DNA of 59,022 nt from Candidatus Udaeobacter sp. (GTDB lineage Bacteria; Eisenbacteria; RBG-16-71-46). The notes beneath the pieces are model-generated. The model was not told the DNA's origin and did no database searches. It worked only from the letters and a program-made list of their open reading frames with translations. Numbering within the stretch: the first letter of the stretch is position 1; each line of letters starts with the position of its first letter. Location of the stretch: the NCBI GenBank assembly GCA_035496475.1, contig DATJEP010000030.1, forward strand, positions 1-59,022. Reading direction: 5' to 3'. The position numbers and the translations under genes are program-made. This document shows, piece after piece, positions 11,311 through 36,671 of the stretch.

Positions 11311-12618
<1,308 letters not shown>

Positions 12619-12914
12619 GCGTGTCGCCTTTGCTGCGGCGCGCTCCGGGACGGCGGTGGGAATGCCTGCCCGAAGCGGCTGGCCGAGGTACGAAGCGGAT
12701 GCTTCGCGGGCCGAGGGTTGAGTGGGTGTGAGAGTTTCGACGAGGTCGTCGAGTCTCGACTGTTCCTTCTGTGAAGGCTGCGTCGTGAGGCGGGAGGACG
12801 GGGTGCGCCCGTAAGGTGCCTGCGAGAGTCACCGCGCCCGCGAGTACTCAGCGCGTTCGGTCGGGCTCGCACGCAGGGCGCTCGGGAGCGCCAGCGAGCC
12901 TCGACTGGAAAAAG

Positions 12915-12943
12915 ATTCTAGAGGCGCCCTCCGCACGTGTCAA
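12915..12943 (-). promoter_or_regulatory. Sigma-70-type promoter for rho: TTGACA-N17-TAGAAT
   Basis: The minus strand reads cTTGACAcgtgcggagggcgcctcTAGAATc. This implies a rho leader of about 290 nt. Confidence 0.55.
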
Positions 12944-13142
12944 GGATGCGGCACACCGTCGCACGACGCGGCGCGTCTCCAGACTCTCCCTCCGTCTCTT
13001 CCCCCCACCGCGATGCAAAGCACGGCGGGTCGCTGTGCGGAACGCGCGCGCTTGGTTGCGGCATTTCCCCCGCGCCGGCGCGTCAGTCGGAGGGAGCGAG
13101 CGATTTCAGGCAGTTCGGAGCGGCGAATTCGCACGGTCGATC

Positions 13143-13157
13143 TGGCACATGGCTTGC
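13143..13157 (+). promoter_or_regulatory. Sigma-54 (-24/-12) promoter, TGGCAC-N5-TTGC exact
   Basis: The plus strand reads tcTGGCACatggcTTGCgg. No credible plus-strand ORF lies downstream. Confidence 0.5.
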
Positions 13158-13168
13158 GGTTCAACTGG

Positions 13169-13292
13169 TTGGCGGTGGCGCGGAGCGCCGCGTTCCTACC
13201 AACCGAGCCTGCCATCTCGCGTGGCCTCTCTCACCGCCCCACTTCAACCCCAGAGCGTCCGGTCCCGAGAGGTCCGGGCGCTCTGTCGTTTT
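13169..13292 (+). ncRNA. Candidate sigma-54-dependent small RNA (about 125 nt)
   Basis: The predicted TSS lies about 12 nt after the -12 GC. A 5' hairpin spans 13167-13204, a C/U-rich linker (CCUCUCUCACC) spans 13205-13250, and the transcript ends in a terminator hairpin plus UUUU. Confidence 0.35.
13251..13292 (+). terminator. Intrinsic terminator: 12-bp stem (cagagcgtccgg/ccgggcgctctg, one G-U pair) followed by tcgTTTT
   Basis: The hairpin was read directly from the sequence. The T-tract is on the plus strand only. The same hairpin could also stop the convergent ybbR-like operon. Confidence 0.5.
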
Positions 13293-13348
13293 CGGCGGGT
13301 TTTCAGGCGGAGACGAGATGGGCGTTCGAGCGAACCGGCATCGCGACG

Positions 13349-14017
13349 TCAGCGGGCGGTGTGGTGGATCGGGATTCGCACCGCGACGGTGGGCGGCTCG
13401 CTCGTGCACCAGTCGGGCAGCGACAGCGGGGACACCTGAGCCCGAACGGTGTCGCGCCGCGAATCGATCCGGACCATGCCGAGCACCACGCTGTCGAGCT
13501 TCGTGACCGCGGCCTCGGGCCCGGTCACCGTGACGAAGCCCGGCTGCGTGCTGATCTCGCCCCAGGTCACCGAGCCCGCCGCCGGCGCACCCTGAACGCG
13601 CGGCGCCACCGGGACGCGCCGCCGTATCTTGCGGTCGAGCTGCATCTCGAGCATGCGCGAGCCCATGATGCGCTCGACCTCGACGCCTTCGGTGTTGCTG
13701 ATCGGCAGGTCTTCGGCGGTCAGCGCGCGCTCGAATCGCCCGCGGCTGACGCCGGCGAGCGAGATCTTGAGGACCGGCTCGCCGAGCCTCAGCCGGATCA
13801 GCTGCTTGCCGGTGCCGCGCAGCTCCGCGGTCACCGCGGCGGGCACCGGACCCGACAGCGACAGGGTGGAATCGAGGTCGGTGATCTGGAGCGGGAACTG
13901 AACCACGAGGTGGGCCGGCCGCTCGGTATAGACGTGAAGGTAGACCAGCAGCGCGAGCAGGAGCGCGGTGAGCTTGAGGCCGAGATTGTCGAGCAGAAGT
14001 CCGCGCAGGAGGCTCAT
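13349..14017 (-). CDS. YbbR-like (CdaR family) domain protein
   Basis: Has an N-terminal anchor (LKLTALLLALLVYLHVY) followed by YbbR-type repeats. Confidence 0.65.
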   Translation of the reverse strand: MSLLRGLLLDNLGLKLTALLLALLVYLHVYTERPAHLVVQFPLQITDLDSTLSLSGPVPAAVTAELRGTGKQLIRLRLGEPVLKISLAGVSRGRFERALTAEDLPISNTEGVEVERIMGSRMLEMQLDRKIRRRVPVAPRVQGAPAAGSVTWGEISTQPGFVTVTGPEAAVTKLDSVVLGMVRIDSRRDTVRAQVSPLSLPDWCTSEPPTVAVRIPIHHTAR

Positions 14018-14080
14018 GGCGTGGGCAGACTAATGGATTCGGACGCGCGCGGGAATGCGAAACGCCTCGATTGCTCCGCG

Positions 14081-15483
<1,403 letters not shown>

Positions 15484-15487
<4 letters not shown>

Positions 15488-16815
15488 TTCGCGGCGCCTC
15501 CCTTTCGCCGTGGCCAGCGCACCACGCACGTGGTTCCGCGGCCGACCTCGCTTCGAATCTCGAGCTCCCCTCCCGCCGACTGCACCAGACGGCGCGTGAG
15601 GAAGAGTCCGAGGCCCGACCCCCGCGCCTTGGTGGTGAAGAACGGGCTGCCGATCCGGCGCAGCGTTTCTTCGGGAATGCCGGCACCGGTATCGGTGAGC
15701 GCGACCTCGATCTTCCCCGCGTGCTCGCCGGCCGCGACCGTGAGCGTTCCACCGTCCGGCATGGCTTCGAGCGCGTTCAGGATCAGATTCAAGTAGACCT
15801 GTTTCAACGAGTCCCTGTCGAGCGCGACGCGCGGCGACCCGCGCCCCGCCGGCGCCTCGACCGCGGATCGCGCCACGGTGACGTGGCGGTCGCGGAATTC
15901 GCCGTCGAGCAGGTTGAGTGTCTGGTCGAGCGCCTCGATCGGATCGCCCGCCTCGCCGTCGGCGACGCCGCCGCGCGCGAACTCGAGATACCGGCTCACG
16001 GTCTTGGCCAGCCGATCGGCTTCCTCGACGACGTAGTCCGACATGCGCCGGGCCTCCGGCTCGAGCTTGCCCAGCCGTTCCGCCGATCCACGGATCACCG
16101 CCAGCGGATTCTTGATCTCGTGCGCCAGCGTCGCGGTCAGGCGTCCCATCGCCGCGAGATTCTCGGCCCGCGACAACCGCCGCTCCAGCCGCGCGGTCGA
16201 TGCCGCGACGCGAATGAACAGCGCGGCGAGCACGGTGATGGCGAGCAGGCTGACGAGCGCGATCAGGAGCAGCGTGTGACGGAGATCGGCGAGCGCGCCG
16301 AGATAGGCAGCCTCGGCTTCGATCGCGACCACCGCCAGGGCGTGTCCGTGCTCGTCGCCGATCGGCGCCACCGCCGCCCGCCGGACGGAGTGATCGCGCA
16401 GGTAGGGAGTCGAGACCGCGGCGTGGCCGGCGAAGGCGCGATCGAACGCCGGGCGCGCCAGTGAATCGAGCACGCTCGGCAGGCCTTCGATCTCCTCGCG
16501 CTCGCGCGCGTCGACGAGGGTCACGCGCGCGGAATCGACGATCACCGCGTCTACGAGGTCGGCGGTCGCGGGCAGCGGGCCGATCAGGGTCTGAAGCGCC
16601 GTGTAGGATGCGCTCTCGGTGCTGCGCACCGCGGGATCACGGATGTCGGCGGGCGCGATCTGGCTGGCCGCGCGCCGCACGATGCGCTCGAGCCTCGATT
16701 CGAACTCGGTCTCGAGCGCGGTCCGGACGCCGCGATACGCGAACGTGGCGCCGAGCGCCGTGACGAGCACGGCCGAGATCGCGAAGCCGACCGTGAACGC
16801 CAGCGTGCGCTGCAG
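15484..16815 (-). CDS. Sensor histidine kinase (2 TM helices, HisKA plus HATPase); probable CTG start
   Basis: H-box motif LAHEIKNPL, plus N/G boxes. The track ORF starts at GTG 16770, inside the first TM helix. An in-frame CTG at 16815 lies 4-5 nt after GGGAGGG and restores the full helix (QRTLAFTVGFAISAVLVTALGATFAY). Confidence 0.85.
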
Positions 16816-32290: not shown

Positions 32291-32305
32291 GCAATCGATG
32301 TGCCA
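32291..32305 (-). promoter_or_regulatory. Sigma-54 (-24/-12) promoter, TGGCAC-N5-TTGC exact, for the FN3-lipoprotein operon
   Basis: The minus strand reads gcgTGGCACatcgaTTGCgc. The -12 element lies 50 nt upstream of the ATG and SD. Confidence 0.6.
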
Positions 32306-32365: not shown

Positions 32366-32418
32366 AAAACGCGACGGCCGCCCGCGGTCCTCTCGGGACC
32401 GGAGGCGGCCGGATCGCG
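32366..32418 (-). terminator. Intrinsic terminator: CGCGA-tcc-GGCCGCC-t-CCGGTCC-cgaga-GGACCG-cg-GGCGGCC-g-TCGCG followed by TTTT
   Basis: The composite stem of about 18 bp and the T-tract on the minus strand were read directly from the sequence. Confidence 0.5.
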
Positions 32419-36553: not shown

Positions 36554-36595
36554 AAAAAAACTTTCACACCAGTCGACTAGGAGGAAACCGACTGG
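36554..36595 (-). terminator. Hairpin (ccagtcg/cgactgg) plus T7 tract 8 nt downstream; possible terminator of the ArsR-Ppx operon
   Basis: The hairpin was read directly from the sequence. The gap between stem and T-run is atypical. Confidence 0.3.
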
Positions 36596-36671
36596 TATCA
36601 ATATTTTTGAATCGAGGGGACCGCCTGCCATTCGGTGCCGGGCAAAGTATCCGCCCACCCGGCGAATGGCG

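Follow-up and report, generated by a model that had tools for sequence, protein, structure and literature searches.

A candidate sigma-54-dependent small RNA gene conserved beside rho in Candidatus Eisenbacteria

In the spacer between rho and the gene for a YbbR-domain protein, the stretch 1-59,022 of metagenome contig DATJEP010000030.1 (hereafter the window, meaning that whole stretch of DNA) carries what is very probably a conserved RNA gene of Candidatus Eisenbacteria driven by sigma-54. Comparison with relatives shows that the predicted promoter, a covarying RNA structure, a terminator, an upstream box and the gene order around them are conserved, and the combination of promoter, RNA body and terminator was found at a total of 83 loci (42 from genomes and 41 from metagenomes). 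Taken as a whole, the observations are best explained by a free-standing gene for a small RNA (sRNA) of ~124 nt that depends on an enhancer and acts in trans through its apical loop, an explanation that we regard as probable. The Candidatus Eisenbacteria have, to our knowledge, no cultured member; the comparative evidence comes from sequence only, and coordinates are given in window numbering.

A sequence-only reading of the window had proposed a sigma-54 promoter driving a ~125-nt, terminator-capped non-coding transcript without an open reading frame (ORF), in the manner of GlmY and Qrr. Conservation at the 83 loci, the covarying helices and a conserved enhancer-like box further upstream strongly support this proposal. 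The same reading had suggested aligning the rho-ybbR regions of relatives and looking for covariation; in the alignments reported here promoter, RNA and terminator are conserved and the helices covary. The structure and the part of the RNA likely to matter differ from those first proposed, as detailed below.

Conservation of promoter, RNA and terminator

An alignment of YbbR homologues, scanned against one genome per GTDB species, returned 80 loci, 73 of which are Eisenbacteria-like, with the order kinase, regulator, YbbR, (spacer), rho. Because these loci were fetched via a neighbouring protein, they were sampled independently of the RNA and of its promoter. At 40 loci the promoter is followed by the core CGCGUCCYACCAUCCGAGCCUGCCAUCUCCAGCGCGG and then by a GC hairpin. 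When positions 13100-13310 served as an nhmmer query, the alignment spanned promoter to terminator and stopped there, and in a five-way alignment of whole spacers the promoter, RNA and terminator stand as islands amid unalignable DNA. A covariance model (R1) of 14 sequences, whose structure was set by hand and which excluded the promoter, has a single match in the window (13166-13295, 49.3 bits, E = 3e-5) and one match in each of 42 of the 73 Eisenbacteria-like loci, that is, a single copy per locus. In addition, a context-blind scan of metagenome contigs with the pattern TGGCAC-N5-TTGC-N35-60-GAGCCTGCCA yielded 119 stretches, of which R1 accepts 41; wherever their flanks allow a judgement, all 41 lie in the rho / YbbR / regulator / kinase neighbourhood.

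The remaining two thirds or so of the 119 stretches are not members of the family. Most are real sigma-54 mRNAs whose Shine–Dalgarno (SD)/start region reads GGAGCCTGCCATG; sigma-54 promoters stand before genes with such a region at L090, L098, L100, L118, L125, L130 and about 25 more metagenome loci. Read in sense orientation, the invariant loop of the sRNA (CGAGCCUGCCAUC) thus looks like the start region of a translated gene and not like the complement of one. At another locus (L064, 2747-2901) a sigma-54 promoter precedes an RNA that keeps GAGCCUGCC within a different surrounding fold and is rejected by R1; this RNA may represent a divergent branch of the family.

Promoters of the sigma-54 class have GG at -24 and GC at -12 within the consensus TGGCAC-N5-TTGC(A/T), at fixed spacing. 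The exact TGGCAC-N5-TTGC pointed out by the sequence-only reading is present on the plus strand as TGGCACATGGCTTGC (Table 1) and is kept in relatives; exact matches in the window number two, vs 0.04 expected from dinucleotide-preserving shuffles. Counted over the 42 ybbR-anchored loci that have the RNA, the element is exact (TGGCA[CT]-N5-TTGC) and on the opposite strand to ybbR in 40, while the other two have one mismatch each (CTGC in L023, ATGC in L029), and in 42/42 it lies 8-13 nt upstream of the start of the covariance model. Around a fixed -24/-12, the sequence varies freely from locus to locus in the 5-nt spacer, upstream of -26 and between -12 and the RNA, which argues that the promoter is under selection of its own. 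The other exact match in the window is on the minus strand at 32291-32305 (TGGCACATCGATTGC), ~50 nt before GAAGGAGGCTGCCATG and an ORF (start 32240) whose beginning, MRKLWILMMVSAVFLAGC, resembles a lipoprotein signal. Since this second promoter precedes a lipoprotein ORF and the regulator gene near the RNA encodes a sigma-54 interaction domain, sigma-54 appears to be in use in this organism. Just upstream of it is a terminator-like hairpin (~32367-32413), the loop of which, CCCGAGAGG, is as in the sRNA terminator.

The RNA region (13168-13296) has a folding energy of -59.9 kcal/mol (z = -3.1 vs shuffles). When members of the family are folded singly, nearly all share one shape despite stem sequences that differ between clades: helices P1 (~7 bp) and P2 (10-13 bp) with a small bulge or internal loop between them, a ~26-nt loop, a variable and mostly G-poor linker and the terminator hairpin. 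Depending on the clade, P1 reads GGCGGUG/CACCGCC, UGCGGGG/CUCCCGCA or GAGGGUG/CACCCC. On a plain MAFFT alignment RNAalifold recovered P2 and the terminator, with 12 of the 19 pairs compensated. Of the model-based alignments, one comprises 77 distinct sequences and another, A4, comprises 45 rows (43 members and two weak matches). Standard pairs fill 92.4% of cells for the 77 sequences (91.5% at the lower end of both alignments), vs 41-52% in controls with the 3' partners shifted by 1-3 columns; changes are seen on both sides of 27 of the 31 pairs (27-28 over both model-based alignments), and the covariation score of 0.454 (0.42-0.45 in both) compares with at most 0.119 in controls. None of 500 shuffles reached the observed values. 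At most positions of the long stem the pairs are kept in 95-99% of relatives, with compensatory changes.

This fold replaces the one given by the sequence-only reading, in which a first hairpin occupied 13167-13204 and was followed by an unpaired C/U-rich stretch at 13205-13250. Among 77 distinct relatives, that hairpin (with its inner stem) pairs in 51-53% of cells, which is background. The stretch taken to be single-stranded contains CCUCUCUCACC, the 3' strand of the covarying stem at 13220-13238, and the conserved unpaired part is instead the loop at 13193-13219. As a CU-rich, anti-SD-like seed CCUCUCUCACC does not hold up, being paired and not conserved in sequence. Among the 77 distinct sequences, identity in the 14-nt core of the loop is 94-100% at every position but 13215, where it is 79%. 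A two-hairpin fold (GGGGCGCG with CGCGUCCC, GAGCCUGC with GCGCGGCUC) was preferred by RNAalifold in one clade; we judge it clade-specific or spurious because no compensatory changes accompany it there and its second hairpin is impossible in other clades (alignment A4).

At the 3' end, the stem and U-run that had been placed at 13251-13292 were confirmed as a GC-rich hairpin of 12-13 bp followed by TCGTTTT. Compensatory changes are present in 11 of the 11 modelled pairs of this stem, and the terminators of the family have a median stem of 12 bp (71 members). A simple terminator scan passed over the hairpin in the window because the 8-base tail window held too few T.

The unit does not appear to code for protein: no start codon or reading frame is conserved across the family, the aligned stems contain indels of 1-2 nt, and no gene is called in the 730-bp rho-ybbR spacer by the source's own annotation. 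Against Rfam 15, including all its families, there was no match at E <= 1 in 12000-14500 and none at the gathering score in the whole window, and a full-text literature search linking Eisenbacteria with sRNAs or sigma-54 returned no paper, nor any regulatory RNA described for the group. The family thus appears to be undescribed so far.

Transcription by sigma-54 RNA polymerase requires an AAA+ enhancer-binding protein, whose sites usually lie ~80-150 bp from the promoter. In the DNA upstream of the aligned promoters we derived a bipartite consensus, E1, of the form GTGCA-N17-20-(T/C)GCG-N3-CGC(A/G), the right half of which has a median position 109 nt upstream of the -24 T (range 84-136). On a composite scale of 13 points, 59 of 71 loci scored 11 or more, vs 13 of 355 shuffled controls, a contrast that is somewhat flattering in that the consensus was derived from the same loci on which it was scored. 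E1 stays beside the RNA where rho is 1.9 kb off (L021, L038, L042) and also where the unit is inverted (L055, see below), which argues that the box belongs to the promoter of the RNA and not to rho. Nearer to the promoter, xTTTCCCCCGCG-like sequences recur at about -85 to -70, as the counterpart of the ATTTCCCCCG box of the window, and the family as a whole shows A/T maxima near -50, -40 and -30 relative to the -24 element, a pattern that would be compatible with a bend or an IHF-type site. The relaxed E1 motif proved too unspecific in this GC-rich DNA for E1-like boxes elsewhere in the window to be accepted. Of the earlier suggestions for this region, the palindromes at 13071-13082 and 13123-13132 are indeed present in the sequence; they are not conserved in close relatives, and the enhancer or bending role ascribed to them is unsupported.

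Genomic address of the RNA

The rho, ybbR, regulator and kinase genes are all on the minus strand (Table 1), so that the candidate RNA is divergent from rho and convergent with the kinase/regulator/YbbR operon. Gene and domain calls bear out the earlier description of the unit as convergent with the 3' end of an operon for a kinase and a sigma-54 response regulator; that description had passed over rho, divergently transcribed, which is the most constant neighbour. Specific names for the regulator and kinase were rejected, as both fall below every NCBIfam equivalog cut-off; the regulator is nearest to AtoC and ZraR. The closest homologues of the window's YbbR protein are annotated as Candidatus Eisenbacteria. 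The promoter of rho is kept across relatives, where it is seen as TGTCAAG on the plus strand. Within the rho leader (~290 nt) there is an invariant GAGTCTCGA box at 12751-12759, ~135 nt 5' of the start codon, which may be part of an autoregulatory attenuator.

Table 1. Features of the candidate RNA gene and its neighbourhood in the window.
Feature	Coordinates	Strand	Remarks
Candidate non-coding RNA, ~124 nt	13169..13292	+	5' end placed from promoter geometry, 3' end from T-run
Sigma-54-type -24/-12 promoter, TGGCAC-N5-TTGC	13143..13157	+	Exact match, sequence TGGCACATGGCTTGC
Long stem, 5' strand (P1 13171-13178, P2 13182-13192)	13171..13192	+	Pairs with 13220-13238
Apical loop UUCCUACCAACCGAGCCUGCCAUCUCG	13193..13219	+	Unpaired in consensus structure; candidate seed/binding site
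Loop core CCGAGCCUGCCAUC	13203..13216	+	Nearly invariant
Long stem, 3' strand, contains CCUCUCUCACC	13220..13238	+	
Linker CCACUUCAACCC, G-poor, single-stranded	13239..13250	+	Length and sequence variable in alignments A4 and A6
Intrinsic-terminator-like hairpin (13251-13285) and T-run (13289-13292)	13251..13292	+	
E1 left half, ATGCA (family consensus GTGCA)	13013..13017	+	Aligned in nearly all sRNA loci; candidate enhancer (upstream activating sequence)
E1 right half TGCGGAACGCG, palindromic YGCG-N3-CGCR	13036..13046	+	107 nt upstream of the -24 T
Second conserved upstream box ATTTCCCCCG	13063..13072	+	Conserved in close relatives
Phased A/T tracts (ATTT, TT, AATT) between upstream boxes and promoter	13103..13129	+	
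rho, transcription termination factor	11311..12618	-	Pfam Rho_N, Rho_RNA_bind, ATP-synt_ab
rho promoter, strong, sigma-70-like, TTGACA-17-TAGAAT	12915..12943	-	Divergent from RNA promoter
YbbR-domain protein gene	13349..14017	-	Last in convergent operon
NtrC-family response regulator: REC, Sigma54_activat AAA+, HTH_8	14081..15529	-	Candidate activator
Sensor histidine kinase: HisKA, HATPase_c	15484..16770	-	

Across relatives, the start of rho lies 413-820 nt upstream of the RNA, divergent from it, in 48 of the 53 loci where rho was detected, and is 1.9-4.3 kb away in L021, L038, L042 and L145. On the other side, the ybbR stop is 1-320 nt from the 3' end of the RNA in 53 of 74 loci, and 19 loci have other genes between the two, over 1.3-4 kb; where genes are inserted on the ybbR side, the RNA keeps its place beside rho. 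As judged by these comparisons, the putative RNA gene is a discrete, single-copy and clade-restricted one with a strongly preferred address.

Two rearrangements of the locus are worth recording. In the L006 clade (L006, 3742-5528; also L008, L011, L014, L054 and L066) genes for a TetR regulator and an S41-type peptidase stand between the sRNA terminator and ybbR, co-oriented with the sRNA, the first of them beginning ~140 nt past the terminator. In L055 (3740-4042; OY970342.1, a closed Eisenbacteria chromosome) the upstream box, promoter, RNA and terminator are all inverted within the ybbR-rho spacer, such that the RNA is co-oriented both with rho, ~310 nt upstream of it, and with ybbR. Seven loci (L004, L005, L020, L024, L025, L029, L044) are syntenic with the Eisenbacteria locus and have YbbR proteins 53-62% identical to that of the latter, and the titles of their metagenome-assembled genomes (MAGs) give Saccharimonadaceae, Binatia, Verrucomicrobiia, Methylomirabilota, Acidiferrales, Terriglobales or Limnocylindria; mislabelling or mis-binning of these MAGs is likely.

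Proposed action and its alternatives

Here we propose that sigma-54 RNA polymerase would bind the -24/-12 element at 13143-13157, and that the promoter would be opened by an enhancer-binding protein, the likeliest one being the adjacent NtrC-type regulator once phosphorylated by its kinase. This protein would sit on the bipartite box ~110 nt upstream (13013-13046), with DNA looping perhaps aided by the phased A/T tracts. The transcript would start near 13169 and end at the GC hairpin and T-run at 13251-13292, and its working part would be the ~27-nt C-rich apical loop, with the almost invariant CCGAGCCUGCCAUC, atop the long 5' stem. Through this loop it would pair in trans with G-rich mRNA stretches encoded elsewhere, placing those genes under two-component control. 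We take the adjacent regulator to be the activator because the required domains are present (a sigma-54 interaction domain together with the DNA-binding HTH_8) and because the known sigma-54 sRNAs Pxr, Qrr1 and GlmY sit beside their cognate systems; its candidacy stands at somewhat better than even. That the RNA acts by base-pairing in trans via its C-rich loop we would put at an even chance.

A number of observations weigh against this proposal. In target searches, which covered the window and the local loci, duplex energies between the loop and the start regions of rho, ybbR, regulator and kinase were at background, 45 rho leaders showed no excess complementarity to it (mean z = 0.2), and its window-wide complements amounted to four 9-mers, no more than chance, with none longer than 9 nt. 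The invariant core of ~14 nt within a conserved loop of 27 nt is longer than most seeds and would fit a protein-binding site too. E1 is not tied to the adjacent regulator as opposed to some other enhancer-binding protein, and the 59-kb window, translated in all six frames, showed no RpoN box. Many members have a weak U-tail: of 71 terminators, 44 have TTT within 12 nt and 15 have TTTT. The covariation of P1 leans on an alignment fitted to the model, and the 41 metagenome members add nothing to the conservation of the promoter because the scan pattern included it. Some 30 Eisenbacteria-like loci keep the kinase-regulator-YbbR operon and rho and have no such RNA within 3 kb; the ybbR-rho spacers of these RNA-less relatives are shorter and contain the rho promoter only, with no -24/-12 site or core. 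Lastly, we infer from the DNA transcription itself, the transcript ends, the identity of the activator, pairing in trans and the targets alike.

Two candidate target sites were set aside. ATGGCAGGC at 36631, which is complementary to the loop core, does not coincide with a credible gene start, and a 12-bp match inside ybbR (13553-13592) falls in a variable part of the protein. The occurrence of ATGGCAGGC just mentioned, the sole one outside the sRNA locus, adjoins an intergenic stretch at 36560-36640 (TTCAAAAATATTGATACC) that is unusually A/T-rich in an otherwise ~70% GC contig.

Were the locus instead to act in cis, sigma-54 transcription would run head-on into ybbR and the regulator and kinase genes, through interference or read-through antisense, and/or the hairpin would serve as a bidirectional terminator, leaving the RNA a by-product. 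The convergence of RNA and ybbR over the short distance found at most loci is what such a reading would expect, the weak U-tails make read-through plausible, and the hairpin is equally stable on the opposite strand; the tail of the minus-strand hairpin, however, is GGGGUUGAAG, which is without a U-run. Moreover, the RNA persists at the 19 loci where other genes, such as those for TetR and the S41 peptidase in the L006 clade, lie between it and ybbR, and in L055 it is co-oriented with ybbR. Antisense read-through into the ybbR, regulator and kinase genes, as had been suggested for the window, is for the same reasons no general feature of the family. A by-product would also not be expected to retain an invariant loop of ~27 nt and covarying stems over a phylum, and we consider action in cis improbable.

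The constancy of rho as a neighbour lends itself to another interpretation, in which the RNA binds a protein, for example as a decoy or modulator of Rho, and in which rho transcription could become linked to the enhancer-binding protein by way of the upstream region common to both genes, E1 being located between the two divergent promoters. The RNA's staying by rho despite insertions on the ybbR side, the abundance of YC dinucleotides in loop and linker (13 C and 4 G in the 27 nt of the former, 7 C and 0 G in the 12 nt of the latter), and a conserved stretch exceeding the usual length of a seed all agree with it. Rho-binding (rut) sites, however, are degenerate and need roughly 60-80 unstructured nucleotides, whereas the RNA offers ~39 unpaired ones of invariant sequence, as would suit a sequence-specific partner rather than a degenerate rut site; rho is also distant in L021, L038, L042 and L145. 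Protein binding as the function of the RNA is in our view quite improbable, and there is only a slim chance that the RNA is a signal-controlled modulator of Rho-dependent termination, binding Rho or sharing its enhancer with the divergent rho promoter. If it were, an environmental signal would reset the level of transcription termination genome-wide. It is very unlikely that the RNA is a 5' leader (riboswitch or attenuator), the remnant 5' end of a sigma-54 protein gene, or a gene for a small peptide. The co-oriented TetR and S41 peptidase genes of the L006 clade would fit a leader, as would the resemblance, in sense orientation, of the loop core GAGCCUGCCAUC to the GGAGCCUGCCAUG SD/start regions of genuine sigma-54 mRNAs from the same scan. 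But at most loci, the window included, no co-oriented gene comes next and the following gene is convergent, the conserved unit includes a strong terminator, and the indels, the want of a conserved frame and a covariation pattern of RNA helices speak against leader and peptide alike. Finally, a fortuitous -24/-12 match beside a neighbouring gene's terminator might be entertained, as hairpins and GC palindromes are common in GC-rich genomes and the window holds one other exact promoter match; retention of the whole unit in 83 loci, with covariation and fixed geometry, already refutes chance, and we leave it next to no weight.

Relation to known sigma-54 sRNAs

Small RNAs with sigma-54 promoters and NtrC-family regulators are known from several systems, to which the Eisenbacteria RNA is best read as analogous and not homologous: it has no match to an Rfam model, and its fold, gene order and phylum are others, which would place it outside the known systems. 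Among the closest analogues in function, together with Qrr/LuxO, GlmY/GlrKR and CrcZ/CbrAB, is Pxr of Myxococcus xanthus and other Cystobacterineae, an sRNA for which a sigma-54 promoter is predicted, with an enhancer-binding region upstream of it, and which is encoded beside a histidine kinase / NtrC-like regulator pair, PxrK/PxrR, that controls its synthesis (PMC5684412). Pxr is known from one myxobacterial suborder and has three stem-loops, of which SL1 and SL2 are conserved and the 3' stem-loop is needed for accumulation (PMC5684412). The RNA described here shares with it the predicted sigma-54 promoter, a candidate enhancer region, the adjacent kinase/regulator pair and conserved stem-loop structure before a 3' stem-loop. 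As Pxr has been described, the two are set apart by fold, three stem-loops vs one long stem-loop and a terminator, and by gene order: pxr is downstream of and co-oriented with pxrK-pxrR, whereas the Eisenbacteria RNA is convergent with its pair, with the YbbR gene between them and rho divergent.

The Qrr RNAs of the Vibrionaceae, for which Rfam holds a family, are sigma-54-dependent and activated by the phosphorylated NtrC-family regulator LuxO, whose gene adjoins qrr1; they act in trans via a highly conserved unpaired stretch, and LuxO sites read TTGCA-N3-TGCAA. Besides the promoter, the adjacent regulator and the conserved unpaired stretch, our RNA resembles them in its candidate activator site, the TGCG-N3-CGCA box having the geometry of the LuxO sites, a short palindrome with a 3-nt centre. 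It differs in fold and phylum, in being single copy per locus and in having no Rfam match. With GlmY/GlmZ of the enterobacteria, which go with GlrK/GlrR, it has in common the sigma-54 promoter, the adjacent NtrC-family two-component system, the terminator and the absence of an ORF, and again there is no Rfam match; GlmY works by sequestering RapZ within a cascade of two RNAs, and a sigma-70 promoter overlaps its sigma-54 promoter. In Pseudomonas, CrcZ/CrcY with CbrA/CbrB and NrsZ with NtrB/NtrC are likewise sigma-54/NtrC-family sRNAs that relay a two-component signal post-transcriptionally. CrcZ acts as a protein sponge by means of repeated A-rich motifs, whereas the RNA reported here has a single C-rich loop without repeats, and there is no homology.

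For the Candidatus Eisenbacteria, a complete regulatory module can thus be read from the sequence, consisting of a kinase and NtrC-type regulator, an enhancer-like box, a sigma-54 promoter and a structured sRNA with an invariant loop; it recurs at a minimum of 83 loci from soil, sediment and water. If base-pairing in trans is the mode of action, complements of the loop sequence GAUGGCAGGCUCGG would be expected near the start codons of the same orthologous genes. The seed alignment and structure provided for this new RNA family offer a handle on the regulon, through target prediction, and on the signal, through metatranscriptomes. With this module, the pairing of a two-component system and a neighbouring sRNA under sigma-54, as represented by Pxr, Qrr, GlmY and CrcZ, would reach into a distant phylum.

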